Source: Candidatus Micrarchaeota archaeon (GTDB taxonomy: Archaea; Micrarchaeota; Micrarchaeia; Anstonellales; Bilamarchaeaceae). From it: 64,000 bases of DNA. Positions 42,702-64,000 of this stretch are shown here, in pieces. Position numbers and translations under genes: made by a program. Position 1 is the first letter of the stretch. Every line of letters starts with the position of its first letter. The stretch lies in assembly GCA_043821365.1 (NCBI GenBank), contig JBDRCX010000006.1, positions 384,001-448,000 of the forward strand, in the 5' to 3' direction. Below the pieces are notes generated by a model that saw nothing but the letters and a program-made list of their open reading frames with translations, had not been told where the DNA came from and did not search any database.

Positions 42702-43187
42702 ATGGGAAGACCAGCATTTAGTGAAGAACATGCCAGTGCTATTCATGCAGACCAGCTTGAAAACCTTCTGGATTATGGTTTTACTCATGGTGAAACCAAA
42801 CAAATTATACTTGGAAGACCAACAGTATTGTCTATAAGTGATGAAAACATTCTGGGTAAGCTTCAAAATTTAGAAGCACCTCGTTTTACTACGCACAACA
42901 ATACATTTGCCCTTACAAGAGAGGAAGTAATACAATTCGTACTTAGTTTTCCGCGTGTTCTTGGTCTAGATTGTGAACGTAATGGGAACATGGATAGAAA
43001 ATTACGGTTGATGGCACTTATAACTGATGGAGATAAACAAGCAATGCTTGAAAATGCACAGAGGTTCATTCAAGGTCCTGCAAAAACACTTGCACGAATA
43101 AAACATTTGAAATCAAGCGGAGTTAATTGGAAAACCCCAGGTGCATTGTTTGTTTCTGAAGCTACATTCAGAAGACGATATCACTAA
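42702..43187 (+). CDS. Hypothetical protein with mTERF-like repeats
   Basis: LLDYGFTHGETKQIILGRPTVLSISDENILGKLQNL / LTREEVIQFVLSFPRVLGLD / LFVSEATFRRRY. Confidence 0.55.
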   Translation: MGRPAFSEEHASAIHADQLENLLDYGFTHGETKQIILGRPTVLSISDENILGKLQNLEAPRFTTHNNTFALTREEVIQFVLSFPRVLGLDCERNGNMDRKLRLMALITDGDKQAMLENAQRFIQGPAKTLARIKHLKSSGVNWKTPGALFVSEATFRRRYH

Positions 43188-45644: not shown

Positions 45645-46067
45645 ATGAAACTCAAAGCAATTAAATTTTACGGGGTTGATGCTCAGCATCTTAAAGAAGA
45701 TAGATTCACAAACCTTGCAGTTAATTTAAGCATGCAGGAAGGTAAACCTGTTGGCTCTGATTTTCGTTCTGATTTTATTTTCACAGTGATGTATGATCCT
45801 AATATTGCAACAATGAAATTCAGTGGGTATGTGCTTATTGAAGGTACAAAAACAGAAATAAACGAACTCACAACTATTTGGAAAAAACAAAAGGTTCTTC
45901 CAAAAGAGATTACCGAACATCTCATAAACACAATTACTTTCCAAGGACAAACAAATGGTGTTTTGGTTGCCAAAGCATTGTCGCTAACTCCACCATTACT
46001 TTCACCAAAAATACAAGTACAAGTTAAACCATCTTCAGCACAATCAAAGCCTTCAAAGAAGAAATAA
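45645..46067 (+). CDS. Hypothetical protein
   Basis: 140-aa ORF with plausible coding composition, followed by a hairpin. Confidence 0.6.
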   Translation: MKLKAIKFYGVDAQHLKEDRFTNLAVNLSMQEGKPVGSDFRSDFIFTVMYDPNIATMKFSGYVLIEGTKTEINELTTIWKKQKVLPKEITEHLINTITFQGQTNGVLVAKALSLTPPLLSPKIQVQVKPSSAQSKPSKKK

Positions 46068-46221: not shown

Positions 46222-49200
46222 CTAGAATGTTGCTTTAAGCTCCAATGTACCACTGATGTCTAATTGTTCAGTTGTTACTGGGCCAACCTCTTGCAATACT
46301 CTATCTACATTGAAGTTTAATTGGAGGTATGGATCTATCCATGTGCCCCAAAATCCTCTTTTTGAAATTATTACACTGGTACCCACTCCAGTACGCATTT
46401 CACTGCCAGTTGTTAACCATTGCTGATATTGTCTACCTAATAAATCTGCTCTTACTTGTGTTGTTGCATCGGTAAACATTGCTCCTCCTCTTAACTCTAA
46501 TTGATATGCTTGTGCATCAATTGCTTCATCTTCCTGGTACATCCCAGTTATCCACCCATATATGTTTCCAAGTTGCATTCCTCTTTGCGGGTCAAGTGGA
46601 AATGTGTAAAATAATGGTATCCCTGCTTCCAACTGCCAAGTTCCACTTTGTGCAGTTGAAATCTCACCAGTTGGGCTTACTTGGATTGATGGGTCTGAAT
46701 ACATATCTTCACTCCCTGAAAATAATATACCCATTATTAATCTCCTGTCAAGTGTAAGTGGTATTCTAAAACCAAGGTGGGCACCATATGCTACTCTATC
46801 TAAATATCCACCACCAAATACAGTGTCAACTGGAGGAGCAAATACTTTTACTTCGCCCAAACCTGGGAAATAACCGTCTACTTTCAAACGTACTTGGTCA
46901 TTTGCTATCCAGTCTGTTGAAGCTCCAATTATAGGTAATGTGATGTGTTCTCCGCCAGAATCAAGCGGATCTCCGCCTACTTTCTTGTGAACAACTGCTG
47001 CAGTAAGTCTCATCTTTGTAAATGTTGATCCCATCGGTGTCCAATCATATTGTACAAACCCTCCCCCTTCATTCGGAGTGAAATCCCAAAGTGCACCAAC
47101 TTCAAGTCCATGTTGTGCAGCCAACCATCTTCTAAATCCTGCTGCAATAAGTATTTGTTCACCCACTGGCGTACTTACTACTTCCTGGTCTGTTAATTCT
47201 GGATGTTGTGCATCAATTGCATCATCTAATGCAGGATTTGAAGAGTCTTCTATACCCAAATTACCCAACGGTGTGGTTCCGGCTAATCCTTGTTGAACGC
47301 TATATTTTCTATATAATCCAGATGCAACAAATCCACCAAGCATGTCACTTTGTATTCCGTATAATCTTCCACCACTTAAGTCATCGACAAATTGATTTGT
47401 TGGATCTCCACTTCTTCTTATTAATCGTCCACCACCTATACCAACATGTCCATATCCAAGAACAGGTTCTCTAAGTGCATGATTTACAATTGCCACACCT
47501 TGAAGATCATTTGCAGCCATATCTTCTTCTCTGTCACTGAAACCAACAAATGCTTTTATTTCTGTTCTACTAACTTTTATGTACTGGCCTTCTAAATAAA
47601 TTTTATTTCCTGCTTGAGGATCACCATATTTGAAACCATCCCCCGAGATTCTTCCAATCCACAATGATTGGTCTTCAGGTCTGAAATTTCCAAAAGCAGC
47701 TGCACCTCTTCGTCCTCTTGTTTCTTCATAATCAACATAACCCCCCCAACCTGCTTTTTGGAATGCAGCTCCAGCACCTTGGAACTGTTCCCATTCGGTT
47801 TCTGGTTCACCTGTGAATGGGCCAGAGAATAAGAATGCACCGTCAAGTTGTGCTATGACATCTCCTTCTTGCACTCTTCCTCCTGTATATAATCTTTGCA
47901 TCGGTCTTTCTATTGTCTGCCAGTATAATGATTCGGCAGTTTCTTTAGGCAAAGTTACTGTGTCTATTTCCACAAAGCTTCCATTTGCAAATCTTTGGAA
48001 TAAGTGAGCTGTAAGTGCAACATCACCTGGAACTACTGTTCCATCTGTACCAACAGTGTCTCTTGCCTGTGTTCTTTTGAAATAAATTAATGTGTCAGCT
48101 CCTGCAGGTGCCATACCTGAGAAATAGGTACCAACTGCTGATACTCTTGGGTCAGTTCCTGTTCCTGCTTCTTCACCCTGTGCTACTACTGGTGGCTCTT
48201 CTATAACTTGTATGTCTCCAGTAAATGTGTTGATATTATACGGTGTACTACCTTCAGGTGCGATCCTCAATTGTTGCAATTCCAAATACCCGACATGCTT
48301 TTTCTCTCCAGACACTACTCCTTCAGTATCAGTTGCAGTTTGCGCAGTTATTTCATATCTTTGTTTTGCAGTTGTTACTTGTCCTTCTCTTGTAAACTCT
48401 TCAGTAAATTCTACGCTTCCCTGCTGTGTTTCTGATGATTGTCTTCCTGCATCGCCAAGATCAGTTTCAACTCTATGCATCTCATACTCAGTTGTGCTCG
48501 CTATTCGCATTCCAATTAATTCTCCAACATCTGGGAATTGGTCTGGTGCAAGGAAACCAAGATTATTCATTAAAAGTGGCAATCGTGTCCATGGGAATGG
48601 GATTGTAGTACGTACATTTACCATTGATTCATCAAAAAAGACACCCATTGTTCTGAACAAATCTGCTGAAGCTGCTGGATCATCGACTATTCTTGGGGCC
48701 TGAGTTATAGTAAGGCCATATTTCTGTGTCCATGTTTCATATATTCTTTTTGGTACTCTTATTATCATCTGTGCAGCTGGTATCATCACTTCGCCGTAAT
48801 CTGCTTCTGGCGGCATTCGTATTCTGACATCTTTTGTCGGCTCTCTACGATCAGATTGCATTGCAGTTATATCTGGGAATAATTTCTCGAGTTTTTTTGG
48901 CAGGTCCTCATAATATGCTTGTAGTAATCTGTAGTGATCCCCAACAATAAACATTTGGCTGTACTGAGTTATTGCTTTTGTTATGGCGATTATTGATGCT
49001 TCATCATATCTTTCAAGAAGAGTATCAGTTGTTTTTGCATAAGCAAGTGCTGCATATCCTGCTGGAAGCCCGCTATATCCCACTATCAATGAACATACTC
49101 TAGCCATCTCTTCTGGGTTTCCAAATTGCGTACTTAGGTCTTTGTATTTACTTTGCAATGCTTGATATAATGCATATTTACTTTGTAATGGTAATCCTGC

Positions 49201-51096
49201 AAAAGTTTGTATTGCAGTTTGTGCAGTTGCAATTCTTGAACTCTGCATATATCTTTCTCCTTCTGTTGCTGCTGGCTGTGCAGTTAAATTGCTTAGATGT
49301 ACTCCCAATGTATCTGTGAATGTTTGGCTAAATGTAAGGAATTTAGGATCGCCTGCAATCGTTTCATACATTCTAACCATATCTGCCACTGGGTCATCAC
49401 TTTGAATAGCAATATACTGTCTCATAAATCTGACTGCCACGCTCTTTTTCAATGCTTGCCATTCATCACTTCCACGTGTTAATCCGCTGAATGCAGCAAG
49501 ACTGTCAGTTATTGCTTCAACTTGGGTTGTTAGAAGTATGTTTAATTGAGTTACTCGTTGTGCACGCAAATCAGCAGTACTTGTACCTGCAGCATCCTGT
49601 GCTCCAAGTGTTCTTAGGTCAGTATCCAATGTTTCAATAGCTGCAGGAACTGCTGTATTTGCCTGTCTTGTTGTCTCAAGAAGAGCATGCAATTTGTCTC
49701 TATCGATATTATGTTTTCTCATAAATGTTTTTGCAAAGACCCCAATTCTGGAATCCAATGCATAACTATCAACTTGACTAAGGTAACTTTCTAATCGTGG
49801 TATGAATATTCTCGCTCCAATCACTTCATAGAAACTTCCAGTACCTGCTATCAAATTGTTTATTCTTCTTGCTCTTATTGCAGTTACTTTTTCTATTTGT
49901 TCAAGTTCGTCTTCAGTTGGTATTTGGCTATTCAATATATCTAATTTTTTCTGGTTAGGACTTGCCTGAAGTTCGTCTCTCCATGTTTTAATATGTGCTG
50001 CAAGCATTTCTTCTGGTGTTGTTGCACCTGCTGCTGGCAATGTGATGCCTTTTTCCCGTAAGAATTCTTCAATATCGCTTACACGCGTTAAAAGATCATC
50101 AACAGTTATTACTTTCTTTGGAACAAGGCTAAGCATATATGCACTAGTTGCTGTTGTCAAACCAGTCCCATGTATTCTTGCAAGTGTTGTCATATCTGTT
50201 TGTGAAACTTGAAGCTGAGCCATAACTGGAAGTAAGTGTTCATTAAACAATTCGCCAACTTGTTCTGGAGTTAAATTTTCAACAGTGGTTTTTTTATCTG
50301 TTGCATAGCCAGTAAGTATGGCTGCTATTTTTGGATCTTGTGTATTTACTGCAGCAAAAAATTCCTTCATATACTCTGCAGGAAACACTCCCCCATTTCC
50401 AGTAACATCTGCATTTATTCTTCTCCATAAATCAACTGCTATTTCTTTTCTTGCTTCTCTTTCTCTTGCTCTTATAAGTCCAACAAAAAGGCTTGCATTT
50501 GTCTGTGCAGAAGCAAGTGTTTCTGGAGAACTTCCAATCAGATCTCCTCTTCCGGCAAGATTAACAATAGGTACAACAACATTGTCAAACATCGTTTCGT
50601 TGTACTCACTTTGCAATGCTTGTATCCCTGGGCGTCCTGCTTTTATCGCAGTATGAATTTTATCAAATATTACTATAAGTTGATCAAGATCTATTGTTCC
50701 TGTTATCTCACCAACTGATCTTATTATTGGTCCAGTTGGTTCTGGTCTTAATTGTGTTAAAAATTCCTGTCTAAGTAATTCAAGAAATGCAGGAGATCTG
50801 TCTTGTAAAATTTCTAAGACCCGTGCTTTTTTAGCAGGATCTCCTGTTAACATAAATTGTTTGAATGTAGTGATACCTTCTTCTGCCTTTCTTTTCAGTG
50901 CCGCTTCAGGCGGGGCGCGCCTTCTTTCTGCCATAGCAGTATTAACTCCAAAGTTGTTTATATTTATTCCGTTAAAGAAAGTAAAAGTTCCAAGTGCTAT
51001 TGCTGCAGCGAATTTTCCAAAAACAGCACGTTTTCTTCTTAATGAAGGTTCTCTTACCTCCCTCTGGTCTTCTCGAAATAATCTTGGCCCACCCAT
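46222..51096 (-). CDS. Giant exported protein (1624 aa): helical N-terminal half plus a predicted C-terminal transmembrane beta-barrel
   Basis: Signal-like RRKRAVFGKFAAAIALGTFTFF...TAMA. The last ~735 aa are amphipathic Gly/aromatic-rich strands ending ISGTLELKATF. Confidence 0.75.
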   Translation of the reverse strand: MGGPRLFREDQREVREPSLRRKRAVFGKFAAAIALGTFTFFNGININNFGVNTAMAERRRAPPEAALKRKAEEGITTFKQFMLTGDPAKKARVLEILQDRSPAFLELLRQEFLTQLRPEPTGPIIRSVGEITGTIDLDQLIVIFDKIHTAIKAGRPGIQALQSEYNETMFDNVVVPIVNLAGRGDLIGSSPETLASAQTNASLFVGLIRAREREARKEIAVDLWRRINADVTGNGGVFPAEYMKEFFAAVNTQDPKIAAILTGYATDKKTTVENLTPEQVGELFNEHLLPVMAQLQVSQTDMTTLARIHGTGLTTATSAYMLSLVPKKVITVDDLLTRVSDIEEFLREKGITLPAAGATTPEEMLAAHIKTWRDELQASPNQKKLDILNSQIPTEDELEQIEKVTAIRARRINNLIAGTGSFYEVIGARIFIPRLESYLSQVDSYALDSRIGVFAKTFMRKHNIDRDKLHALLETTRQANTAVPAAIETLDTDLRTLGAQDAAGTSTADLRAQRVTQLNILLTTQVEAITDSLAAFSGLTRGSDEWQALKKSVAVRFMRQYIAIQSDDPVADMVRMYETIAGDPKFLTFSQTFTDTLGVHLSNLTAQPAATEGERYMQSSRIATAQTAIQTFAGLPLQSKYALYQALQSKYKDLSTQFGNPEEMARVCSLIVGYSGLPAGYAALAYAKTTDTLLERYDEASIIAITKAITQYSQMFIVGDHYRLLQAYYEDLPKKLEKLFPDITAMQSDRREPTKDVRIRMPPEADYGEVMIPAAQMIIRVPKRIYETWTQKYGLTITQAPRIVDDPAASADLFRTMGVFFDESMVNVRTTIPFPWTRLPLLMNNLGFLAPDQFPDVGELIGMRIASTTEYEMHRVETDLGDAGRQSSETQQGSVEFTEEFTREGQVTTAKQRYEITAQTATDTEGVVSGEKKHVGYLELQQLRIAPEGSTPYNINTFTGDIQVIEEPPVVAQGEEAGTGTDPRVSAVGTYFSGMAPAGADTLIYFKRTQARDTVGTDGTVVPGDVALTAHLFQRFANGSFVEIDTVTLPKETAESLYWQTIERPMQRLYTGGRVQEGDVIAQLDGAFLFSGPFTGEPETEWEQFQGAGAAFQKAGWGGYVDYEETRGRRGAAAFGNFRPEDQSLWIGRISGDGFKYGDPQAGNKIYLEGQYIKVSRTEIKAFVGFSDREEDMAANDLQGVAIVNHALREPVLGYGHVGIGGGRLIRRSGDPTNQFVDDLSGGRLYGIQSDMLGGFVASGLYRKYSVQQGLAGTTPLGNLGIEDSSNPALDDAIDAQHPELTDQEVVSTPVGEQILIAAGFRRWLAAQHGLEVGALWDFTPNEGGGFVQYDWTPMGSTFTKMRLTAAVVHKKVGGDPLDSGGEHITLPIIGASTDWIANDQVRLKVDGYFPGLGEVKVFAPPVDTVFGGGYLDRVAYGAHLGFRIPLTLDRRLIMGILFSGSEDMYSDPSIQVSPTGEISTAQSGTWQLEAGIPLFYTFPLDPQRGMQLGNIYGWITGMYQEDEAIDAQAYQLELRGGAMFTDATTQVRADLLGRQYQQWLTTGSEMRTGVGTSVIISKRGFWGTWIDPYLQLNFNVDRVLQEVGPVTTEQLDISGTLELKATF

Positions 51097-51210: not shown

Positions 51211-53409
51211 TCAAAAACCATCAATCAAAATTCGTGGAGGTTTCTCAGCTCTAATCCCTATGCTTTCTCCCCATTTTCCAATGTCTTCATTTGGATTTGT
51301 TTCTCTCCATCTATAAAGTGCCATTGCACTTAAAGTTAAAGTAAGATTTTGAGGATCAACTCTTATTTTCTGTGCATTACCAAGCCCAAGTTTTTCTTGT
51401 AATTTGGCGATATCTCCTCCAAGTCTGGTGCTGCCACCAACTCTTTCATTTAAAAATTCCTGAACTGCTTTTGCATATACTCTTAATGTTCTGCTATTTG
51501 TTTCATCTGTCATCTGTGTAATTTCTCCTCGTTTAGTGAAACTTCTATATTTTACTAACATAAATCTTTTGAATTCAGGATCTGCACAAAGTTCGTTGAA
51601 AGAACCTGCAAATGCTTTTTTATTATCTTGTGCAGATACAGTCTCTCTCATTTCAATTATTCTTGCAGGATTTCTTGCTGTAATTGCAGCTATCATCTCA
51701 TCTGCTTTTGTTTGCACTGGTTCTTCCATTCTTTCTAGTGGAATTTCTATTCTTGGTCTTCTATCTGCTATTCCAAATGCAACTTGTGCTATTTGTCTTG
51801 CTATTTCTTCTTTTCCTGCTTTGTTTGGGTGTAAATGGTCTCCTGAATCAAATTCAGGTTTTAATCTTCTTCCCTGAGCAAGAATTGAAAGATCAATAAC
51901 AGTTACTCCATCCTCTCTTTTGGCCAAAAGCCATTTGTTATATTCATCTGTTTTTTGTTGATTTCTTTGCGACCATGTTCCATAACCTTCCCATGGTGTA
52001 ACAGTAAGAAGTACTACTCTCAGTCCTGCGCCTTTTGCCATTGCTATCATTTCATCAATGTTTCCTTGTATTTCGTTTAGTGGCCTACCACCAGCAATAT
52101 CATTTACTACCCCACCCTGTATGACGACTGTGTATCCCTTGTCTATTATGTCTCTTTTAAATCTTCTTTTCATTTGATAAGTTCCTTCTCCGGAATGCGC
52201 AGTTGTTTCAACTACTGCATCAGAAGTTTGCGATCGTAATAATTTTTGTAGTTCTTTACCAAGTATTCCATCTGCTGCAGATGAACTTCCTATTATGCCA
52301 ACATAAACTGCTGGTCTTCTTGGTGATGGTTGTGCTTCTTCGATGGCAACTGGTGTTCTCCAGATTGGTATATCATCTGATCTTTTTGCTCTTCCACTTG
52401 TTGGGTGAGTGAGGTACCATCTTCTCATATGCAGTTGTGCAGCCATTATAGTATCACTATCAATTGGTCTTTCCATTGCTGTTTTTCTTGCCAGCGGTCT
52501 TGCTTCTATTATTGCTCTTACCTTTTCCAATTGGGTTATCTCTTGTCTATAGTTCTGATCCATCCCACCGAAATTTGTCAAGTAATATCTAATATACAAA
52601 TCAGCAGCTTGCAATATTTTTGCATCTGTTCTTTTGTCTATTCTTTTTCCAGATTCAATATGTTGTAATAAATTCCCAAGCTCTGGGTGAGTCTCTGCTT
52701 CCTGTGCTGCTGCAGTTGTCAAATAAAGTTCAAATGCAGGTATTTTTCTCAATTCACTAAAAAGTGCTACAGTTATTTCTTTTTGCGCTGTTGTTCTTGC
52801 TGTTCCTCTTTGTCCTTTTGCCAAGACTTTGTCAATAGCTGTTCTGTTTGTAAATAAAGTAGTTGTTGCTGTTTCTCTATCTGATGAAGTTATTTGTTTT
52901 AATATAAATCTTTGATTGATTGTTGGGCCTCTTATTCTAGTTCGTGAACTTGCTGTTCTCACAGGTTCAGCTCGCCTTTCTGGTTCTGTTCTAGTTGGCT
53001 GGGCGTCTTCTATAACTGGTTCTATTCTTACAGGTGGTTTGTCCCGTACCTCTGGTTCTACTCTAGGTACTGAACGTTCCTCGATAGGTGGGGTAAATAC
53101 TCTTGGTTCTACTCTTACTGGCTTATCTTCTGGTACTACAACTGGCTCTGTTCTCACAGGTTCAGCTACTTTTATTTGTGCTTTAAGTTGTTGTGCTAAT
53201 GTTGTTGTTGCTCTTATTGCAACTATTTCTGATTTTTTATCAGAGTCACTTGAATATGCTTTGAAAGCCTCTCCTAATACTCTGCTTATTTTTGCTTTTA
53301 CTGCATCATCGCTTTCTTCCCTAGTTATTCTTGTTGATGATGTGTAAACTGTACCATCAGAAAATTTTATTATTATGGCATTAGTCCCATTCAATCTAGC
53401 TGTTGCCAT
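51211..53409 (-). CDS. 732-aa protein with a central SGNH/GDSL hydrolase domain
   Basis: Blocks IIGSS (Ser), HSGEGT (Gly), GGVVND (Asn), DSGDHLHPN (Asp-His). N-terminal PxRxEP repeat region. Confidence 0.8.
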   Translation of the reverse strand: MATARLNGTNAIIIKFSDGTVYTSSTRITREESDDAVKAKISRVLGEAFKAYSSDSDKKSEIVAIRATTTLAQQLKAQIKVAEPVRTEPVVVPEDKPVRVEPRVFTPPIEERSVPRVEPEVRDKPPVRIEPVIEDAQPTRTEPERRAEPVRTASSRTRIRGPTINQRFILKQITSSDRETATTTLFTNRTAIDKVLAKGQRGTARTTAQKEITVALFSELRKIPAFELYLTTAAAQEAETHPELGNLLQHIESGKRIDKRTDAKILQAADLYIRYYLTNFGGMDQNYRQEITQLEKVRAIIEARPLARKTAMERPIDSDTIMAAQLHMRRWYLTHPTSGRAKRSDDIPIWRTPVAIEEAQPSPRRPAVYVGIIGSSSAADGILGKELQKLLRSQTSDAVVETTAHSGEGTYQMKRRFKRDIIDKGYTVVIQGGVVNDIAGGRPLNEIQGNIDEMIAMAKGAGLRVVLLTVTPWEGYGTWSQRNQQKTDEYNKWLLAKREDGVTVIDLSILAQGRRLKPEFDSGDHLHPNKAGKEEIARQIAQVAFGIADRRPRIEIPLERMEEPVQTKADEMIAAITARNPARIIEMRETVSAQDNKKAFAGSFNELCADPEFKRFMLVKYRSFTKRGEITQMTDETNSRTLRVYAKAVQEFLNERVGGSTRLGGDIAKLQEKLGLGNAQKIRVDPQNLTLTLSAMALYRWRETNPNEDIGKWGESIGIRAEKPPRILIDGF

Positions 53410-53413
53410 CTTA

Positions 53414-56400
53414 TCACTCCGCTCTCTGTCCTGCTCTTCTTGCAGCTGCTTTTATTCTACTTCCTAAAAATGCTGGAGACTTATCTTCATCCAATGTTAT
53501 CGTTAATTGTCCACCTTCAGCAAATGTGAGTTTTATTCCACCTCTTTCATAAAGTTGTTTATCCTGTGAAACTGTTTTTGCCCTCAATATCTCAGCATAA
53601 ATCTCCCTTGTAATTTCTCTAGTTGCATGTGCTAATGCGTCTGCATCTGAAACTCCAGGTGCTTTGTATCTCTGGATTAATGCAGCTATGTCTGGGTCTG
53701 CCTTTTGTCTTTCTGTTGAAGCTTCAATATCTTGTGCAATTTTAAGTCCTTCCATACTGTCCATGAAGCCTGTTAGTTCTTGATCACTTACTGTTGAGAC
53801 GTCTGTTCTTGGAGCTGCAGTTCTTACTGGTGTTAATGTTGCCCATTTTGGATAATGTCTTCTGAGTTCTTCCTCATCTCTTACTTGCTGGCTTGGTTTC
53901 TGTCCGCTTTGTTGTGCTCTATGTCTTCTAGCTGCTTCTGGAGTTCTTGGCACTCTCTCATTTGCCCTCATCAATTTTCTACTTTCAAACTGTCCCATTA
54001 AACTATCTAAATATGTTGTAAGTGCCTGTTGTTCTGTTGGAAGGCTGGATTTATTCAGTTCCAAATATCTGAGTACAGCAACTAAATTTATTCCATATCC
54101 AATATCTCTCTTCCCTTCAATCCAAGTCATGATCAAAGGATTTTTCTGAGCAAATGTTAACAGATCCCTGTGTTCAAGAATTTGTGGATCAATGTCACCG
54201 TAAGATGCTCGTAATATCCAACCTTCTCGTTGTGCTTCTGCCTTGAGGTTAAATGGAGGCAATTTTCCTCTTTCTCTTTCTGGTGTTCCATCAAATAATT
54301 GTTTTCTCTCTCTTGTTTTTGTTACAATCCACGTTGCAAATTCTGTAAGGTCACCATAAACTGCTTCGTTTGCATCAAGTGTTAAACTATCAAGAGCTCT
54401 TAGGGCATCTGGGTCACCTTTATAGAGTGTTAAGATTTCTCTTACTGTTGTTTCTAATGCAGGGTTTCTAGTCATTGCTTCTCTATCCAAATATCCAAGA
54501 ATAGCATTGTGTGACAATCCCCTTGTTTGCCCTTCTTGTTCTTCAGGTATTTCCAAAACCCAACCTTTTTCTCTTAAGAATACGTACATTCCTTCTTCTA
54601 AGGTTTGTTCGCCTTGCAATCCTGTTCTTATTCCAGCTATTACTCCTGGTTTTGATAATTCTATTATTGCATCTCTTGAATATACTACTGGTAGACTTCC
54701 GTTATGTACTAAATTCCAAAGAGCAACAAATGCATCCCTATCTTGATTTAGGAACATGTGGACTTTGTCACTGAATGCTCCTTCTGCGGTTGCACTAGTT
54801 GATAAACTTAAAAGGAATGATGCTTGCGTAACATCTCTTGGTGGTTTTTTACCACCTGAGGCCATCTCATTAAGTGATAGAAATTCTTCAACAACTACTG
54901 AAAGTTTTTTCTCATCAATTTCTGCTTTTAATCTTAGTCTTTCTATCACACCAGTTCCAGCCAACATGCTAGCTGCCATTTGTGCATTTCCGTATGGTAC
55001 TTTTCCACTTTTCATTAATGTCCACAATACATCGTAGACATCGGCATTTTGTGTGAAAACTTCAAACTCTCTTTGATGGTCAGTTACTCCACAATCATAA
55101 AGAAAGGAGCTTACTATTGCACTGCCAAAAGTGAAAGCATATCCTTTGTCAACCCAATCCCCTGTTTTTCTTAAGTCAACAAGATCCATCATCTCTAAAT
55201 CAATTCCAGTATCTCGTTTCTTTATTCTTGCTCTTCCTATAAGTTGATCATAGCTTATTCCCCATGGTTCTATTATTGCTCTTAGTTTTCCTTCATATTT
55301 TCTATCAGGATCATCGTTGCCATTTATTCTTGTAACATAATCATTTATGTCATCTATTTGTCCTGACATCTCTCTAACATCATCTAACACTCTGTCAACC
55401 ATGGCAGGGTGTATATACCCTCCCTCTCGTTGCATTGCTTCTTCTAAGTTTTGTGGTCTGCGTTCATCTCCTTTTGGATAAATATATGGGAGCATGTCTA
55501 CGAACATTCTAACATTTGGGTCTTTGATTATTGCCTTTGCATTGTCTTCTGATATGTCAACATCGAATTTTTCTTTTATCAGTCTTCTTCCTTCTGTAAT
55601 GGATTTTGTTTGGAATAAGCATTCTGATATTGTACCATAGGTCCATTCTATTGGCCCCTGCTCTGGATCACCTGTGATCTTTCTACCCCACCAATATTCC
55701 ATAAGTGCTACATCTGCTGCCCATAAGCCAAATTGAGCTACAACTAATGCTGTTCCCCATGCACGTTTTGACCCTTCAACTAATTCTCCTGATCGTATTG
55801 CATCTTCTCTGATTGCCATTCCTCTACGTCTGAGGGGACCCAATCTTCCTCCTCTGCCCCAACCTCTTACTGGTAAAATGTAATCTAATGCACTTATCAA
55901 TCCTGTTGGAACTCTTCCTTTGGCCCAATGCCAAGCATCAACACCTGCTGATCCATACTCTGGCACTGCTACTTCAGGGTTACTTCTATAATTTGTTAAT
56001 GCTTCAGCATATTTTCCTAGTGCATTAAAGTTGTCGCTAAATCCTCTCACTTCAGTTGCAAAATCAGCCAATTCACTGTCAATTCCTCTTATTTCTTCTA
56101 TTGCTTGTTCTACTTTTGTTCTTTGTTGTCTTGGATTTTTACTATTCCACTCTTCCAATGCTAGGTCAAGTTTTGCATCTGATAGTGCTTCCCTGTATGC
56201 TGCTTCTTTACGTCCTAGTGCTTCCATCACTGGTTCGCTTTTTAAAACACCAAGCAATATTTCATCTGCATTTCCACCTCTAGCAACTCTTTCAAGCACT
56301 CTTTGTTGTGCAACTTGTGCAGCTTGTGAATCTGCAGATAAATCTGCTATTGTTCTTTCAGTGTAGTATTGAAGTCCTCTTGCTTCTCCTTCAATAATAG

Positions 56401-59400
56401 GCTCTCTCATTTTTCCTTCAGTCAATAATCTTGCAAACATTTCTGCTTTTGCTGTTTCTCCAAATCTAGTTGCCAACATTCCTTCAGTTGCAACTAGTGG
56501 TTGGTTTCTAGCATCTTGTATCTGTTGAGTTGCTTCGTATATTGTTCTTTCTGCTCCTTCTAATCTTGTGTTATACCCTTCCAAAGTTTTCAATGGCTTT
56601 CTTATTGCTTTATCCCATGCAGTTCTTGCAGTTCCTAATGGAGCCACATCAATTCCTTGAGATCCAAGAGTTCCAAGATCTTCATGTACAGAACCCAATT
56701 CTCTCTGGATTCTTTGTAATGATTCTCCAATTCTTTGTGTTGTTCTAAGTAATTCTCTTGGACTTGTTCTTTGTAAGTTTGTCTCTCTTAAAAATGCAAT
56801 CTCATCTACCACAGTTCCAAGTCTTTCTTGTATATATCCTAGACTTGCATCAAGTGCTTCTATTCTTGCTATCTGGTTTGTTAGTTCTGCTGCACGGGGG
56901 TTTGTTGCATCCAATCCTCTAAGTTCTGTTCGCAATACCTCGATTTCACCATAGCTTTCACGCTCAGCTGTTAATGCACCATGCTGTTCAATTGCTGTTT
57001 CTACTGCTTTATCTGCCCCTCTCAAGTAACTTTCTCTTGGTGATGTTTCTGCACGTGCGAGTTTTGGTCTTAGTGTTTCTATCTGCCCCTCAACTTCCAC
57101 TCTTGTTCTTTGTGCACTAGCTTCTGCTGCTCGTGCTTGTTCAACCATCCTAATTACTGGGGCTTCTAATGTATCTAAAATAAGGCCAGTTTCTGTTTCT
57201 GTAAATAGTTTTCCTTCCTCTCTAACTCCTAATCTCCTATAATGTTCTTCCAATGTTGTTCCTGTTCTTCTTATTGTTTCTGCTGCAGTACCTTCTGAGC
57301 TTCTTATTGCTCTTTGAATGTCAACATTTCCTTCTGCTGCTTCTCTAAGTACGTTTCTAACATTCTCTCTAGCATACATCTTTTGCATGATTCTTGCCAA
57401 TTCTGTTCTTAAAGCTGATGGAACATCTCTGCTTGTTGATCTTTCGTAAAGTGTCCTGAATAATTCAACTACTCTCAAATTTGCTAGTTCAACTGCTTGT
57501 GCATCGGTAATATCCATTGTAACTCTTTCTGCAGATGGTCTGGCAGTGTCAAGTATTCTTTCAAGCCCCATGCTTGCTTCAGTTGCAAAATCTTGTGGTG
57601 CAGTTACTCCTTCTCTTGCTCTTACTTCTGCTTCTACTGCTCTTGCACTTCTTCCTTCTCTATAACCTCTATATGAATCAAGAACTCGTCCTGGCACATT
57701 CAACCTACTTCTTCCACCAGTTGGTGGTCTTACTTGGCCTCCACCATCTACAGGGCCTCCGCCTCCCGGTGGATCAGTACTTGCTCTTATTTGTGTTCTT
57801 GTAACTCCTTCTATTGGAGCTCCTCGTTCACCCATAGTCGGAGGCCTTCCCATCATTTGTATTGGTTCTCCACCAACTACTTGTAATTCATAAACTTCCA
57901 TTGCCTGAACTTCAACTTGTAAAATTTCTTTTGGAACAACTGCTTCCAAATCTGTAAGTGCTTTTCTAAATGCAGCTTCAGATGCAGGATTTAATCCTCT
58001 ATCATATGATAATCTTACAAAATCATTACTTACAAGTCTATCAACTATTCTTGCAACTTCTGGATTTTGCGATCGTATTTGTTCCAATCTTGCTGTTGCA
58101 AGTGCTTCTCCATGAACAAGGTCACCAACAAAATCACGTAGTGTAACTCCTCTTGTTGCAAGCCAATTTGCTGCTTCATATAATGGTCCTGTATTTCTTG
58201 GACCTGGTGTTGTCGGAGGTGGTCTTTCAAATCCTCTTATTGCTGCTCTCATTGCTTCTTCTGCTTGTAAAAATGTTACTGATGTGTCTGGTGCGCGAAG
58301 TGCTTCTGTCATTGCAGGATTTCTTGCTAAATCACCAAGAACAGTTCTAGCATGTTCTGGTATTCTAGCCATCATGCTTTCTTTTACAATTGGGTCAGCT
58401 CTTGTGTATGCTCTTAAAAATTCCAATAATTTTGCCGGGCTTCTTAACTCAGCAACTCTTGCAGCTTCAGGAACCCTTGTTGGTTCAATTTCAATTGCAG
58501 GTCTTTCTATTGCTGGTGCAAGTTCTTCTACAACTGCCTCAAGATCCACTGCTTTTGCTCTTGCAGTTTCAGCACTTCTTACTCTTGCTGCTCTATATCG
58601 TGCACCTCCCATATGCGCCCACGGGAAAAGTGCAACCATTCCAGTAAATACTGCTTCTTTGTACTGTCCACTTTGCCATGCTCTATAGGATTCATATCCC
58701 ATATACCCAGTCATTCCAATTCCAATTCCAACATTGGCCATAGTTATTGCTCTTGCTCTTCCTAACATTCTTGTTGCAGTGGCAAGCTGACCAAGTCTCT
58801 CTGCTTCTACTGCTCCTCTTCCAAGAGAACCAACCCAACTTCCAAGACCAACAGTTACAACTGTCAGTCCCATCATAGCCCAACTTGTTGCTGATACTGC
58901 TCCTTCAACATGGTATTCAGTATAAGCATGATCTGCCTGCTGTGCAAGTATCATCGGAATTCCAATTTCTGGTTGGAGTACTGTTACCCCTAATGCAACA
59001 ACTGTATAAGCTGCATTTCCTGCAAATCCAATTATCCCTGACCATTTTTCCATTTGTTCTACTATTACTTTAGCCTCTGCTAATTTTTGTTCTCCTAAAT
59101 CACTTTGTCCTGTTCTGTATGCTCCTGCAGCACTTAAACACGCCTCTCTTACTTGATCTTGCCTTCCTGCATAATCTTGATTAGCTATGCTTTGACTAGT
59201 GTTTCTTGCTGGAATGCTGAACATAGCTATATCTATCATTCTTGCTGCCTCAAGTCTCTTACCATGCATTTTTATTCTGTCAGTTCTTCCTGGAGTTTCA
59301 TCTCCAAATAATATTTCCCTCAGTGCCTGTTTGTGGATTAATAAATATTTGACATACTGATCATCTCTTCCAGCTACTATCTCTCTTCTTCTATCATTTA

Positions 59401-62400
59401 TAATATCTGAAAGTGTTTCATGTCCAAATGCTGATGCCATCATTTCAGCGTCAGAATCAATACTAACGGTTACAAAAATATCTGTTTCAGTTCCATATCT
59501 TTTCATTGCACTGATTCTCAGGTTTATTCCGTTGCTATATGCTAGCATTGCTCTTTCTCCATCTCCTATTACTATGAGGTCTAGTGCTTTTTGTAATTCA
59601 GCTTCACTTCTATCAAGGAGTCCTCTGGTTTCATATGTTGCTCCTTCAAACAAATCATCAAGAGGGCCTGAAGTTTGTGCAGCCATTGATCGGTATGCAG
59701 GACTAATCTTCAATTCGCCATTCACAGTTGCATAAGCAGTAACTAATCTCTCTTCTTTTCTAAAATCTGCCATGAGTGTGCGATAGTCTTCTAAGAGGCT
59801 TTCTTCAACTCCTCCTCGGTGTCTTACCTGCTCTATTCTTGCTACTAATTCTGCTCTTCTTCTTTCTAATACAAGTAATCTATCTCTAACTTGAGTTGGT
59901 ATAGTTGGTTCTACAGTTTGCGTTACTGTTTCTGCAGGTTTTATGAGTGTTGGTTTACCTACGGTTCTCCATCCACCGCCTGGCATATCAACTGTATCTA
60001 CGCTACTGTAGTCATATCTTGCAGGACTCACAACATCCTGCCTTCTCATCACTTGCCCATCTTGCCATACATAACCATGCACTTTTTTCACATGGGTTGG
60101 TGGTTCATCATACATTCCATAAACAGTTGAAGTTGCGACTTGTAATGCATCTAGTGATTCAACAAGTTGGTCATACGTTTGTGATCTTGATGTTGCTTGT
60201 ACCACTCTTCCAAATCTCAGATTGTATGCAGTTACTGCGGTGTTAAAACCCTCAATATTTCCCTGTCTTGCAGCTACTTCGATATCTCTTAAAATATCCT
60301 TCAATGGTCTTCCTGCTTCCAATAAAGGATCTCTTGGTTCTGCTCCCTCTCTTGTATCATATGCTCTTAGATCTGCCATATCCAAGTAAACTTTCTTTCC
60401 TGCTTGGTCTTCCCCAATTAAAATTTTTCCTGCAGCAGTTTGTTCATTTACGGCCCTCTCCCCTCTATAAACACCTAATATCTCTTGATATCCCTGCATA
60501 AGATTGTGGGTGTTTTCAACTAAAATAATTCCTTCAATAAGTTTATCTGCAGCAGTTCTGTGTTGTGTTGCAGTTATTGATATTGTTTCTAATCTAATTG
60601 CTTCAAGCATTTTTGCTCTACCGCTAACAATACCCGGAACTGTGCTTCTTGCAAAAATATCATATCTTCCGCCTTCTTTTCTTGCTTCTACTGCAGGCGT
60701 ATCTCCTTCTGCAGGAATTGCACGTATCTCAATTCCATAAAAATCAGCTACCTGTGACAAAAGTATTTTTGCACCTTCAAAATCTTTTCTTTCTGCTCTT
60801 TTTCTTGCAGTTTGAATTGCGAATGTTATATCTTCTCTTCCAAATTCTCTTGTTGATGCCAATCCTTCTAATCTTACGGATTCTCTTTGTATGTTTAGGC
60901 TGTATGCTCTATTGAAACTGTCCATAAAAACAGCTTCAATCTCAGTCCCATCAACTTGTTCTTCACCTGCAACAATGGCACCAAGTGCTCGTTCCATTCC
61001 ACGAACAACTGAAACATCTGATCTTGCTAATGAATGTATTTGTCCTCCTCTCCTTGTTGCAATTACCTCTACACCATCAATGTACATTGTAAGTAGCATA
61101 AGAACTTTTGCAGCTTGTTCTGCTTTTCCTTCTCTTGCAAGTCTCTCACCCTGAGCCAAACTGTCTCGAATAACTTTTCGTTGCATTACCATGCCAGACC
61201 CCCAGTCTGACAATAGTTCATTCAAGCGTCCAGAATCAACTTTGAAACTATGGTAAACTAAACTTGCATTGAATTCTTGTAATGCATTTCCACCACCAAT
61301 TTCAATAGCAAGAGCTGCTTCCATTTCTTTTGATCCATCCCATCTTCTGCCATTTGTTTGGATCATATCAATGTAAGTCTTAACCATGCTAAGCAATCTA
61401 CGTGCTCCAAGTGGGTCTGTTTCAAGTCTTTCTAATATTTTTTGTGCAGCTTCTCTTATTCTATCATTTTGTTCTCCTCTTTTTTCTGGTGGATAATCTG
61501 CAACTAATCGATCTGTTTCTGCTTTGATATTTCCAAATTGCAATTCTGCTGTCATTCTAGCAAGCATACCGGGGCTAGGTGTTCTCTTATTTCTTATGAT
61601 GTCCATCACTTCGCCATATGAGGTTGGAAGATATTCTCTAAGTCTGTCAAGTGATGTTTTATCCAACTGACCAACCATTATACAAAGTGCTGCAAGTGTT
61701 CTGTTATTATCATCAATTGCTCTTAGTGCCTGGAGACCAAACCATGCCGGAGTTCCTTCTTCTATTCTACTTTCACGTCCTGTTCCTCTTAGTACCTGCG
61801 CACTTTGTCTTAGAATTTCAATTCTCTCTCGGCCCATTGGCACATCAGTTCTTCCAGAAAGTGCAAAATAACCAGCAGTTAATCTGTTTATCTCATCATA
61901 GGTTGCAAGTGCTGTTGGATGTCTTGTTAATCTTTTTGTAAGTTCTTGTGTTTCATCTCTCCATCTATAATACTGATCCATTGCAGCAGCTGCACTTGCC
62001 TCTCTCATCTCTCTTGCTGGCACTAAAGATGCCACCATTCCTTCCAAATATACAAGTGTTTTCTCTCTCACCTGTCTCCTAATGTCAGCAAAATTATGTT
62101 CAAATTGTGCAAGTGTTCTTGTATCCTCTTGCTGTTGTTGTGCAGTATACTCTTCTCTTGCTTGTAATTGTGCCGCTTTGCTGGTTACGAATACAGTTGC
62201 GCTTCTAAATTCTTCAGCAGTTGCACTGTCATCAAAAATAAATATATCAAAATTTTGAGTAACTAATACAAATCCTTTCAATGTAGCTCTTGCTAACAAA
62301 TCCTGTTCTCCCCCAAGTTCAAGAATAGCAAGTTCAGCTGAATCTTGCAACATGGTAAATGTTTGTTCTGGTCCACTTGGCCCAATAAAATAGGTGTCTG

Positions 62401-62818
62401 GCAATCCAGCTTGTATTATTTTTGAACTACGTACAAACACATCTCCAAGCATCTGCAACTGTTCTTGTGCTACTGTTAATTGTCTCCATGCTTTTTCAAT
62501 ATCTCCTTCTCTTTTTGCCTGTTGTATGAATGCCCTAATGTGATCTATTTCATTGTCAAATCGTTCTCTGAATATTGGAACTGATTCAAGTTTCATTTTT
62601 TCAAGTATGCCTAGCAATCGCTTTGCTTCTCTGTCTATTTGGGCTGCTCTTGTTGGTACTGGCCTGCTTGAAATAGTTGCAGAATATTCTCGCAATTCTC
62701 TAATTGCAGTTTGTGTTTCTTGAAGTGCTCTATCTAAGCTTTGTAATTCTGTTCTATCATAACTTTTACGTGGTATAATTCCACTTCTATGTCGGGGATC
62801 TTCGGTTCTTTGTGCCAT
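53414..62818 (-). CDS. Giant hypothetical protein (3134 aa), mostly alpha-helical with hydrophobic hairpins
   Basis: Uninterrupted 9.4-kb ORF with a GGTGA RBS 4 nt before the ATG. Its stop overlaps the RBS of the next gene. Confidence 0.85.
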   Translation of the reverse strand: MAQRTEDPRHRSGIIPRKSYDRTELQSLDRALQETQTAIRELREYSATISSRPVPTRAAQIDREAKRLLGILEKMKLESVPIFRERFDNEIDHIRAFIQQAKREGDIEKAWRQLTVAQEQLQMLGDVFVRSSKIIQAGLPDTYFIGPSGPEQTFTMLQDSAELAILELGGEQDLLARATLKGFVLVTQNFDIFIFDDSATAEEFRSATVFVTSKAAQLQAREEYTAQQQQEDTRTLAQFEHNFADIRRQVREKTLVYLEGMVASLVPAREMREASAAAAMDQYYRWRDETQELTKRLTRHPTALATYDEINRLTAGYFALSGRTDVPMGRERIEILRQSAQVLRGTGRESRIEEGTPAWFGLQALRAIDDNNRTLAALCIMVGQLDKTSLDRLREYLPTSYGEVMDIIRNKRTPSPGMLARMTAELQFGNIKAETDRLVADYPPEKRGEQNDRIREAAQKILERLETDPLGARRLLSMVKTYIDMIQTNGRRWDGSKEMEAALAIEIGGGNALQEFNASLVYHSFKVDSGRLNELLSDWGSGMVMQRKVIRDSLAQGERLAREGKAEQAAKVLMLLTMYIDGVEVIATRRGGQIHSLARSDVSVVRGMERALGAIVAGEEQVDGTEIEAVFMDSFNRAYSLNIQRESVRLEGLASTREFGREDITFAIQTARKRAERKDFEGAKILLSQVADFYGIEIRAIPAEGDTPAVEARKEGGRYDIFARSTVPGIVSGRAKMLEAIRLETISITATQHRTAADKLIEGIILVENTHNLMQGYQEILGVYRGERAVNEQTAAGKILIGEDQAGKKVYLDMADLRAYDTREGAEPRDPLLEAGRPLKDILRDIEVAARQGNIEGFNTAVTAYNLRFGRVVQATSRSQTYDQLVESLDALQVATSTVYGMYDEPPTHVKKVHGYVWQDGQVMRRQDVVSPARYDYSSVDTVDMPGGGWRTVGKPTLIKPAETVTQTVEPTIPTQVRDRLLVLERRRAELVARIEQVRHRGGVEESLLEDYRTLMADFRKEERLVTAYATVNGELKISPAYRSMAAQTSGPLDDLFEGATYETRGLLDRSEAELQKALDLIVIGDGERAMLAYSNGINLRISAMKRYGTETDIFVTVSIDSDAEMMASAFGHETLSDIINDRRREIVAGRDDQYVKYLLIHKQALREILFGDETPGRTDRIKMHGKRLEAARMIDIAMFSIPARNTSQSIANQDYAGRQDQVREACLSAAGAYRTGQSDLGEQKLAEAKVIVEQMEKWSGIIGFAGNAAYTVVALGVTVLQPEIGIPMILAQQADHAYTEYHVEGAVSATSWAMMGLTVVTVGLGSWVGSLGRGAVEAERLGQLATATRMLGRARAITMANVGIGIGMTGYMGYESYRAWQSGQYKEAVFTGMVALFPWAHMGGARYRAARVRSAETARAKAVDLEAVVEELAPAIERPAIEIEPTRVPEAARVAELRSPAKLLEFLRAYTRADPIVKESMMARIPEHARTVLGDLARNPAMTEALRAPDTSVTFLQAEEAMRAAIRGFERPPPTTPGPRNTGPLYEAANWLATRGVTLRDFVGDLVHGEALATARLEQIRSQNPEVARIVDRLVSNDFVRLSYDRGLNPASEAAFRKALTDLEAVVPKEILQVEVQAMEVYELQVVGGEPIQMMGRPPTMGERGAPIEGVTRTQIRASTDPPGGGGPVDGGGQVRPPTGGRSRLNVPGRVLDSYRGYREGRSARAVEAEVRAREGVTAPQDFATEASMGLERILDTARPSAERVTMDITDAQAVELANLRVVELFRTLYERSTSRDVPSALRTELARIMQKMYARENVRNVLREAAEGNVDIQRAIRSSEGTAAETIRRTGTTLEEHYRRLGVREEGKLFTETETGLILDTLEAPVIRMVEQARAAEASAQRTRVEVEGQIETLRPKLARAETSPRESYLRGADKAVETAIEQHGALTAERESYGEIEVLRTELRGLDATNPRAAELTNQIARIEALDASLGYIQERLGTVVDEIAFLRETNLQRTSPRELLRTTQRIGESLQRIQRELGSVHEDLGTLGSQGIDVAPLGTARTAWDKAIRKPLKTLEGYNTRLEGAERTIYEATQQIQDARNQPLVATEGMLATRFGETAKAEMFARLLTEGKMREPIIEGEARGLQYYTERTIADLSADSQAAQVAQQRVLERVARGGNADEILLGVLKSEPVMEALGRKEAAYREALSDAKLDLALEEWNSKNPRQQRTKVEQAIEEIRGIDSELADFATEVRGFSDNFNALGKYAEALTNYRSNPEVAVPEYGSAGVDAWHWAKGRVPTGLISALDYILPVRGWGRGGRLGPLRRRGMAIREDAIRSGELVEGSKRAWGTALVVAQFGLWAADVALMEYWWGRKITGDPEQGPIEWTYGTISECLFQTKSITEGRRLIKEKFDVDISEDNAKAIIKDPNVRMFVDMLPYIYPKGDERRPQNLEEAMQREGGYIHPAMVDRVLDDVREMSGQIDDINDYVTRINGNDDPDRKYEGKLRAIIEPWGISYDQLIGRARIKKRDTGIDLEMMDLVDLRKTGDWVDKGYAFTFGSAIVSSFLYDCGVTDHQREFEVFTQNADVYDVLWTLMKSGKVPYGNAQMAASMLAGTGVIERLRLKAEIDEKKLSVVVEEFLSLNEMASGGKKPPRDVTQASFLLSLSTSATAEGAFSDKVHMFLNQDRDAFVALWNLVHNGSLPVVYSRDAIIELSKPGVIAGIRTGLQGEQTLEEGMYVFLREKGWVLEIPEEQEGQTRGLSHNAILGYLDREAMTRNPALETTVREILTLYKGDPDALRALDSLTLDANEAVYGDLTEFATWIVTKTRERKQLFDGTPERERGKLPPFNLKAEAQREGWILRASYGDIDPQILEHRDLLTFAQKNPLIMTWIEGKRDIGYGINLVAVLRYLELNKSSLPTEQQALTTYLDSLMGQFESRKLMRANERVPRTPEAARRHRAQQSGQKPSQQVRDEEELRRHYPKWATLTPVRTAAPRTDVSTVSDQELTGFMDSMEGLKIAQDIEASTERQKADPDIAALIQRYKAPGVSDADALAHATREITREIYAEILRAKTVSQDKQLYERGGIKLTFAEGGQLTITLDEDKSPAFLGSRIKAAARRAGQRAE

Positions 62819-62931
62819 TATATCACCTTGTAAGAATTATTTTTCCAAAGGAAAAAATGTTTGTGCATTTTTACACCGTCGAAAATTTCTTTGAAATTTT
62901 TGAAAAGTAAAAATGTCCTCATTTTTACACC

Positions 62932-63252: not shown

Positions 63253-63361
63253 GATACGCACCCGCAATTAAATTATACCTCTGGTTATTTATAAATCTGC
63301 CTACCGTCTGATGGATGCGAATCAGGCTAAGTTGTTATTTAAAAATTAGAAAAATAAAGAA

Positions 63362-64000
63362 TTAGTTTGTTTGTTTTACAAATCTCAAAACTTCACGACC
63401 AAGTATTATTGGTGCTTTGTCATCATCTACTTGTACTTCCAAACCACTTTCAGTTGTTGTCACTGTTAATCCATTTGCTTTTAAGTAAGCACTTTGTGTT
63501 GAGTTTGTTGTTGCCCTTGTAAGTCTTGTAAACCAGTCTGCTCTGATTGCCTGCATGAATTGCTCCTTATCGCCGCCATACTTCGAAACAAGAACTTCCT
63601 GTACCGTTGCACCGTTTGGTCCAGATGCATCAAAGAGTTTTTGGACTGCTTCATCTAATCTTGCACCAAATATGCTGTTCTGGAAAAATGTTTGGCCTTC
63701 TGCGCTAAGTACTTCAGTAGTCACCACACTCTGAGCAGTCGGTTCGCTTATTTGTACTATTAACCCAGTTCCTTTTGCCCATTCCACTCTTGATCCTTGT
63801 GGATATCCAAATGGATCGTAATCGCCTAACTGCCCTCCGTCTCTTTTATGTTGAACTAACAATTGAACAAATTCATCTGATCTTTCAACATTAAGTCTGT
63901 ATGGTGATGCAGTTTGTTTGAATCCTAGGAGGAATTCTTTTACATCAGTTTGTACTACACAAACATCCAATGAAGCTTCGTGGAGTCCTAATCCACTAAG
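63362..64000 (-). CDS. C-terminal part of a further large protein related to the 3134-aa protein (5'-truncated by the window)
   Basis: The frame stays open to base 64000, and the C-terminal motif aligns with the end of the 3134-aa ORF. Confidence 0.75.
   Translation of the reverse strand, partial: LSGLGLHEASLDVCVVQTDVKEFLLGFKQTASPYRLNVERSDEFVQLLVQHKRDGGQLGDYDPFGYPQGSRVEWAKGTGLIVQISEPTAQSVVTTEVLSAEGQTFFQNSIFGARLDEAVQKLFDASGPNGATVQEVLVSKYGGDKEQFMQAIRADWFTRLTRATTNSTQSAYLKANGLTVTTTESGLEVQVDDDKAPIILGREVLRFVKQTN

Follow-up and report, generated by a model that had tools for sequence, protein, structure and literature searches.

A gene on the minus strand of a 64,000-nucleotide stretch of Candidatus Micrarchaeota DNA (assembly GCA_043821365.1, contig JBDRCX010000006.1, positions 384,001 to 448,000 of the forward strand; hereafter the window) encodes a protein of 1624 amino acids (aa), P0001, whose last ~560 residues were predicted by structure modelling, with good confidence, to adopt a β-barrel fold of the outer-membrane protein (OMP) type. 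Taken as a whole, the evidence slightly favours the conclusion that a lineage of Micrarchaeota makes true outer-membrane-type transmembrane β-barrels without Omp85, either in a second membrane of its own or as the pore of a bridge between cells.

Membrane β-barrels are regarded as a hallmark of the outer membranes of bacteria and of organelles that descend from these, and Omp85 proteins are considered necessary for barrel assembly; archaea are not known to make outer-membrane pore barrels. A predicted barrel of ~29 strands in an archaeon with no detected insertase challenges both ideas. If the barrel were to lie in a second lipid membrane of the cell itself, this would mean diderm archaea with an independently evolved barrel proteome; alternatively, it would mean direct insertion into the membrane of another cell as the pore of a cell-to-cell bridge. 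P0001 thus reopens the old question of a second membrane in some Micrarchaeota and is a concrete, clonable candidate for the proteins that join DPANN symbionts to their hosts. No description of the P0001 family, or of OMP-type barrels in Micrarchaeota, was found in the literature, the nearest statement in print being a single sentence in which a relative of PopA is suggested for Altiarchaeales (PMC12228718).

Predicted barrel fold of the P0001 C-terminal region

The gene and the predicted parts of its product are listed below in window coordinates, together with the basis of each assignment (AF2, AlphaFold2; A2, an alignment of 22 sequences).

46222..51096 (-): P0001 barrel gene, open reading frame (ORF) of 1624 aa, single copy in the genome
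46225..47898 (-): residues 1067-1624, predicted OMP-like β-barrel (AF2, fold searches, family statistics)
46225..46278 (-): residues 1607-1624, predicted last strand with alternating hydrophobics and a terminal Phe
47899..48846 (-): residues ~751-1066, Pro-rich segment and predicted β hairpins (A2 consensus, AF2)
48847..50928 (-): residues ~57-750, predicted all-α domain of ~33 helices (AF2)
50929..51096 (-): residues 1-56, predicted signal peptide with a basic n-region, hydrophobic core, NINxF and an AMA|E site

An earlier note on this DNA had described the ~735 C-terminal residues of P0001 (window 46222-48430, including the stop codon) as a predicted large outer-membrane-type barrel. All of the motifs that it quoted (WGGYVDYEE, IYLEGQYIK, LEVGALWDF, GGFVQYDWT, YGAHLGFRIPL, YQLELRGGAMF and PYLQLNFNVD) were found in P0001, the translation of which ends in ISGTLELKATF with a terminal Phe, and the barrel reading was supported by the AF2 strands, by the chains retrieved with VIA-align, by the language-model neighbours and by the family statistics given below. 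Its extent, set by the note at residues ~890-1624, held for the confidently modelled residues 1067-1624 but not for residues 880-1066, which were β-rich but poorly modelled (predicted local distance difference test, pLDDT, about 35-62, lowest before residue 981).

The AF2 run of the barrel covered residues 880-1624 and used a shallow alignment (A1) of 21 homologous sequences. It gave a mean pLDDT of 71.9 and a predicted TM-score (pTM) of 0.56; the five models agreed with one another (mean pLDDT 68.5-71.9), and many 10-residue strand blocks in the barrel region had a mean pLDDT of about 90 or more. DSSP assigned 29 consecutive antiparallel strands of 7-20 residues each to residues 1067-1624 of the model.

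Foldseek searches of the model against the PDB returned TonB-dependent receptors, Deinococcus SlpA, porins and LptD as top matches, with Rhs and teneurin shells far down the list (probability 0.04-0.12). In an unbiased VIA-align search of 48,161 PDB chains, the top 50 were all membrane β-barrels (Z 9.9-15.6), including OmpT (Z 15.6), FyuA (14.8) and SprA (13.8) as well as VDAC, Tom40 and TamA; a second pass gave Z up to 16.1. The root-mean-square deviation (rmsd) to known barrels in these alignments was mostly 4-10 Å, and up to about 20 Å. Shape matches in the ESM-Atlas were exclusively bacterial OMPs, the best being a 500-aa bacterial protein (TM-score 0.60) with 409 residues aligned at 5.6 Å, a match that points to a single large barrel rather than two small ones. 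Language-model features of residues 1060-1624, which do not depend on AF2, were nearest (0.92-0.93) to the SlipAM, OMP_b-brl, CymA, Porin_O_P and PgaA_barrel clusters. P0001 was assigned to no family in Pfam or NCBIfam, PDB sequence and profile searches gave no match, and the C-terminal regions of the 21 homologues matched no Pfam OMP family below E=0.5. The likeness of P0001 to OMPs is therefore structural, without sequence homology to described families.

The small number of aligned sequences (21), the mean pLDDT and pTM values and the high rmsd to known barrels would all be consistent with mis-prediction, in which a shallow alignment of a Gly- and aromatic-rich sequence has led to a barrel model while the real fold is different. 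This is, however, improbable: the five models agree and contain many strand blocks near or above a pLDDT of 90, the independent language-model features give the same class, and a high rmsd is expected when barrels of 16-22 strands are laid on one of ~29. The statistics on runs, loops and termini are also independent of three-dimensional packing, those on runs and loops using the strand boundaries of the model.

These statistics were compiled across the family, with strand boundaries taken from the AF2 model and the 21-sequence alignment and without use of the three-dimensional packing of the model. In nearly every strand, residues of one parity were conserved as hydrophobic in the 21 homologues and those of the other were polar or charged. 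Strands 13-29 (residues 1307-1624) had hydrophobic runs of 2-7 alternate residues (mean about 4.5), less than 10% of which were charged, and aromatics were enriched at the run ends (0.29, compared with 0.13 in the middle), which looks like an aromatic girdle. The 28 connections between strands, compared in 18 homologues, had a mean length of 4.2 residues on the side of the C-terminus (standard deviation 1.6) and 8.6 residues on the opposite rim (standard deviation 5.1); this contrast between the rims, with short turns and long variable loops, is the classical OMP topology. We infer that the barrel would be closed, with its hydrophobic face directed outwards.

Among 26 family members, 21 ended in F, W or Y, some of these being only 17-24% identical, compared with a background of 60 of the 826 genome ORFs of at least 200 aa (7%). 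Searches of the genome (1.2 Mb in six contigs, 87% complete) gave no match to Omp85 (PF01103), POTRA (PF07244) or TamB (PF04357), with detection in the control genomes. A function of the terminal Phe, called a bacterial-style signal in the earlier note, as a signal for the β-barrel assembly machinery (BAM) finds no support; the residue should rather be described as part of an OMP-like terminal strand, and the conserved aromatic end may be purely structural.

Because charge-free runs with aromatic edges, the asymmetry of turns and loops and the terminal aromatic fit membrane barrels and not sandwiches or cocoons, embedding of the P0001 β region in a membrane is moderately favoured. The opposing explanation is a non-membrane structure: an amphipathic sheet or barrel, the hydrophobic face of which would be covered by residues 750-1066, by the helical domain or by neighbouring subunits of a surface lattice or cocoon. 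Alternation of hydrophobic and polar residues is found in soluble sheets too, hydrophobic runs are weak in strands 1-12, the genome searches detected no insertase, and Rhs and teneurin shells do occur low in the Foldseek list; residues 750-1066, which are conserved and were not placed by AF2, could fill a wide lumen. The probability of the Rhs and teneurin matches was nevertheless very low, with none among the VIA-align top 50, and the language-model neighbours were exclusively OMP families. The runs of up to 5-7 alternate hydrophobics that many strands between 13 and 29 contain, bounded by aromatics and with charge below 10%, together with the hallmarks of membrane barrels seen in the loop asymmetry and the terminal aromatic, likewise make a non-membrane structure rather unlikely.

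Among structurally characterized barrels, the SlpA/OmpM tethers (PDB 8ae1, 7zgx and 8agd; OmpM1 8bys/8bym) resemble the predicted layout of P0001 in a long N-terminal α part, a giant single-chain C-terminal barrel and an aromatic last residue, and their N-terminal part spans the space beneath the outer layer, as that of P0001 may do. The SlpA barrel has 30 strands, and SlpA gave the best Foldseek TM-score by query, although this was only 0.30-0.32 and SlpA lay outside the VIA-align top 50. No sequence similarity was found between P0001 and these proteins. Residues 1-1066 of P0001 contain no Pfam domain, and hence no SLH or wall-binding domain, and the N-terminal part is predicted by AF2 to be a globular or solenoid domain of 33 helices rather than a trimeric coiled coil. 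The organism, too, is different: an archaeon in which neither an outer membrane nor peptidoglycan is known.

Porins (Vibrio cholerae OmpT 6ehe/5oyk, Omp32 1e54, OccD/OccK and maltoporin) gave the highest VIA-align Z values (14-16.1), with whole chains covered. They resemble the P0001 model in their antiparallel meander, in having one rim of short turns and one of long loops, and in the terminal aromatic, but have 16-18 strands compared with about 29, and their rmsd of 7-10 Å reflects a mismatch of curvature. P0001 matches no Pfam porin family, and its predicted barrel is joined to another 1000 residues. The longest alignments (320-360 residues, Z 13-15) were obtained with the 22-strand barrels of TonB-dependent transporters (FyuA 4epa, BtuB 3rgn/1nqe, FhuA and BauA 6h7f). 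These are plugged by an N-terminal domain, a role that residues 750-1066 may play in P0001, whereas no match to Plug (PF07715) or TonB_dep_Rec was found in P0001 (E<=0.1) or in the C-terminal regions of the family (E<=1). Two translocons, SprA of the type 9 secretion system (6h3i, 36 strands) and LptD (26 strands), form single-chain barrels whose width exceeds that of a simple solute pore. Their cargo is macromolecules or lipids, and plugs or partner proteins keep them shut. The VIA-align alignment of P0001 with SprA had Z 13.8 and rmsd 6.0 Å, and LptD was present in the Foldseek list, but neither is related to P0001 in sequence and both depend on BAM and partner lipoproteins, which are absent here.

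Predicted export signal, predicted helical domain and distribution of the family

At the N-terminus of P0001, a basic stretch (RRKR) and a hydrophobic segment (residues 24-42) are followed by a conserved NINxF...(A/I/V)MA|E/Q, which is compatible with a signal-peptidase site, and this pattern recurs in at least 12 full-length homologues. The cleavable signal peptide suggested in the earlier note is thus corroborated by an n-region, a hydrophobic core and a cleavage-type site that are kept across homologues. The motif NIN(D/N)F, which at least 12 family members carry after the hydrophobic core and ahead of the predicted cleavage site, is unusual for the c-region of a signal peptide and may be a sorting or processing mark.

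Residues ~57-750 were modelled by AF2 from alignment A2 as ~33 helices with pLDDT mostly 80-95. For this helical domain, Foldseek returned nothing at E<1e-3, the weak top rows being TcdA1, Integrator and lipid-transfer proteins, and the best VIA-align Z of 7.2 was at noise level; no known fold was matched. Between the helical domain and the barrel, residues ~751-1066 had a pLDDT of 38-66 and invariant or near-invariant Pro, Gly and aromatic columns in the A2 consensus. Within this segment, residues ~751-860 are rich in invariant Pro and are the most conserved sequence of the family, although their AF2 model was poor, and residues ~860-1066 were modelled at low confidence as long β hairpins. 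Distant homologues align mainly over residues ~980-1280, partly within the same segment. Residues ~751-1066 could be a plug or could provide additional barrel strands.

An exhaustive search of 1.8 billion representative proteins identified only 20 relatives of P0001, most of which were 1000-2200 aa long with the same layout, the rest being a few short fragments; no sequence relative was found outside Micrarchaeota. The nearest homologue (59-64% identity) was from Ca. Bilamarchaeum dharawalense, a member of the Micrarchaeota, order Anstonellales (PMC8561730). A profile scan detected the family in 17 of 301 genomes of the phylum, including 11 of the 64 other genomes of its taxonomic family and 5 of the 21 other genomes of its genus, and did not detect it in the two largest families of the phylum (75 and 54 genomes). 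Members from the same genus share only about 25-60% identity. The sequencing runs listed as carrying the P0001 gene were DNA only, from groundwater and biofilm metagenomes.

The P0001 gene lies on a 798-kb contig which is clearly archaeal: aTrm56, geranylgeranyl reductase, FtsY, prefoldin, eIF6, L31e, S19e and fibrillarin are encoded in the same window or elsewhere on the contig. Bacterial contamination of the bin was ruled out, given the position of the gene on this contig with archaeal hallmark genes.

Envelope context and candidate locations of the barrel

In the two cultured Micrarchaeota that have been examined, the outer layer is an S-layer and there is no outer membrane (preprint 10.1101/2021.04.28.441871; PMC11329633), and cultured members live attached to hosts, which are archaeal (preprint 10.1101/2021.04.28.441871; PMC11329633). 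Early cryo-electron tomography of ARMAN cells, in contrast, was interpreted as showing two membranes (reviewed in preprint 10.1101/2021.04.28.441871). The S-layer protein of the cultured Ca. Micrarchaeum harzensis contains the S_layer_N domain (PF05123; preprint 10.1101/2021.04.28.441871). This domain was absent from P0001 and was not found in a search of the whole genome. OMP_b-brl also had no match in the genome, with the control genomes again detected.

The explanation that we tentatively prefer, at less than even confidence, is a pore at the contact with the host. P0001, a member of a family specific to Micrarchaeota, would be exported by the Sec route; once the signal peptide had been removed, its helical domain of ~700 aa would be located outside the cytoplasmic membrane, and the last ~560 residues would close into a very large outer-membrane-type barrel of roughly 28-30 strands. 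The barrel would reside in a lipid bilayer other than the cytoplasmic membrane of the archaeon itself, most likely where the host cell is contacted, and would act as a wide conduit, probably plugged, and connected through the helical domain to the giant membrane proteins whose genes lie directly upstream. Because no Omp85-type insertase was found in the genome, insertion would be spontaneous or aided by factors other than Omp85. We infer the embedding in a membrane, the location at the host, the plug and the link to the neighbouring genes; a contact with the host in particular is suggested by the patchy, fast-diverging distribution of the family, by the cluster of giant orphan genes, and by the S-layer envelopes and host-attached life of cultured Micrarchaeota. 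The run of orphan genes and the SGNH hydrolase gene before the barrel gene are conserved in one other genome (G288) and partly in two more (G287 and G134).

Several points weigh against a host-contact pore. No Omp85-type insertase was found in the 87%-complete genome, and the alignment behind the barrel model is shallow (21 sequences). Strands 1-12 (residues 1067-1269) have shorter hydrophobic runs, of 2-5 residues, so that the hydrophobic belt may be discontinuous. The long variable loops are on the side that would cross the membrane and face the host interior, which fits an outer layer of the archaeon itself more naturally. No membrane would survive a barrel so wide if it were unplugged, and the plug is itself conjectural. 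Finally, homologues at 19-28% identity still lie beside an ORF of ~140 aa, and several are near Trm56 and PGM; the kept chromosomal position therefore argues for a gene long resident in the genome rather than a weapon acquired recently.

An outer lipid layer of the archaeon itself is the alternative location, in which the barrel would be a large channel and tether like Deinococcus SlpA/OmpM, with the helical domain reaching back toward the cytoplasmic membrane and the giant membrane proteins. The fold evidence is common to this explanation and to the host-contact pore. In its favour, the long N-terminal α part with a giant C-terminal barrel parallels SlpA, the best Foldseek match by query TM-score; the long variable loops are on the far rim, as for a face exposed to the environment; the locus of the barrel gene is old and stable; the genome contains a second, small OMP-like candidate and no S_layer_N protein was found; and the early tomography of ARMAN cells was taken as two membranes (reviewed in preprint 10.1101/2021.04.28.441871). 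Nevertheless, we consider it unlikely. Among the 21 other genomes of the genus only 5 were found to have the P0001 family, and among the 301 of the phylum only 17; the small candidate was detected in 6 of 301, which, this genome excepted, are different ones. There is therefore no common core set of outer-membrane proteins. Omp85, POTRA, TamB and OMP_b-brl were not found in the genome, and the two cultured Micrarchaeota have an S-layer as their outermost layer (preprint 10.1101/2021.04.28.441871; PMC11329633). In addition, P0001 has no SLH-like anchor and its signal peptide is apparently cleavable, which would leave the protein without an anchor of its own.

The small candidate (239 aa; G000:C2:190420-191139 (-), equivalent to L023:4421-5140 (-), outside the window) has a signal peptide ending AQA|NS, is β-rich and terminates in FGWNLGGFVSKTF. 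It had no Pfam match, and its language-model features were 0.93-0.96 to bacterial small-barrel clusters (DUF2490, KdgM, CopB and OMP_b-brl). Among the 301 genomes of the phylum it was detected in only 6, none of which, besides the genome of P0001 itself, carries the P0001 family.

The exported barrel might instead be taken up by the BAM of a diderm bacterial partner or prey and inserted into the bacterial outer membrane. The conserved terminal aromatic after alternating hydrophobics would suit such a route, as would the lack of a detected insertase in the archaeon's own genome, and the adjacent SGNH hydrolase would target ester bonds. Such bonds are absent from archaeal ether lipids and present in bacterial lipids and acetylated glycans. 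Also encoded in the genome are a protein whose NlpC/P60 domain exceeds the Pfam cut-off and an SLT-like domain that falls short of the threshold, although both matches to peptidoglycan hydrolases are weak (26.2 and 19.4 bits). BAM, moreover, works from the periplasmic side, which is hard to reach for an external protein, and the hosts of all cultured Micrarchaeota are archaeal (preprint 10.1101/2021.04.28.441871; PMC11329633); a bacterial destination is accordingly highly improbable.

The NlpC/P60 domain is in a 261-aa protein (L036:1411-2196 (-), on G000:C2) and the SLT-like stretch in an 833-aa protein (L035:712-3213 (-), on G000:C1). The presence of domains of the peptidoglycan-hydrolase type in an archaeon hints at dealings with bacteria.

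Genes adjoining the barrel gene

The barrel gene is the last of a co-oriented run encoding proteins of 1296, 111, 3134, 732 (the SGNH hydrolase) and 1624 aa. Its neighbours in the window are as follows.

45645..46067 (+): 140-aa ORF, adjoining the barrel gene, likewise in loci L024, L033 and L034
51211..53409 (-): 732-aa protein, SGNH/GDSL hydrolase (PF13472, 1.1e-17), directly upstream of the barrel gene
53414..62818 (-): 3134-aa helical protein, hydrophobic helices near residues 1262-1330 and 2355
63362..64000 (-): 3' end of the gene for the 1296-aa protein, which continues past the window; hydrophobic helix near residue 721

The run of giant orphan genes spans window positions 51211-64000 (-) and L022:1363-5253 (-), and its G+C content was 0.37-0.40, compared with 0.34-0.37 in the preceding 10 kb. 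An integrated mobile element or virus was ruled out, the cluster being situated between genes for FtsY, prefoldin, eIF6 and ribosomal proteins on one side and aTrm56/PGM on the other, in a locus that is kept in homologues of 19-28% identity.

No Pfam match was obtained for the 3134-aa protein. A simple hydropathy scan, together with inspection by eye, showed internal hydrophobic helices but no N-terminal hydrophobic segment in the giant upstream proteins. The 3134-aa and 1296-aa proteins resemble each other in an end motif (..L.V/I..D.DK.P..LG..), which is echoed at the start of the 732-aa protein. In the latter, the hydrolase domain occupies residues ~370-540 and is preceded by a spacer rich in Pro, Glu, Val and Arg (~85-165); there is no N-terminal hydrophobic segment. 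G288, G287 and G134 encode homologues of the 3134-aa protein upstream of the barrel gene, accompanied in G288 by the SGNH gene; in G287, the 732-aa protein had a partial match over residues 220-360, outside the hydrolase domain.

The 140-aa ORF on the other side of the barrel gene belongs to a wide archaeal family without assigned function and, by eye, has no signal peptide or hydrophobic stretch. It was found beside the barrel gene in three distant loci, with 30-39% identity and in either orientation. Its Atlas model had a TM-score of 0.63 to a cluster named SecB, in which 13% of the members carry SecB; sequence searches gave no support for SecB, and the shape match is a lead only. The product could be an export chaperone.

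An Rfam scan of the 64-kb window was empty. A 161-aa protein encoded at window positions 42702-43187 (+) had a borderline Pfam match to mTERF (23.3 bits, cut-off 23.1, E 3.6e-5), a family known mainly from eukaryotic organelles.

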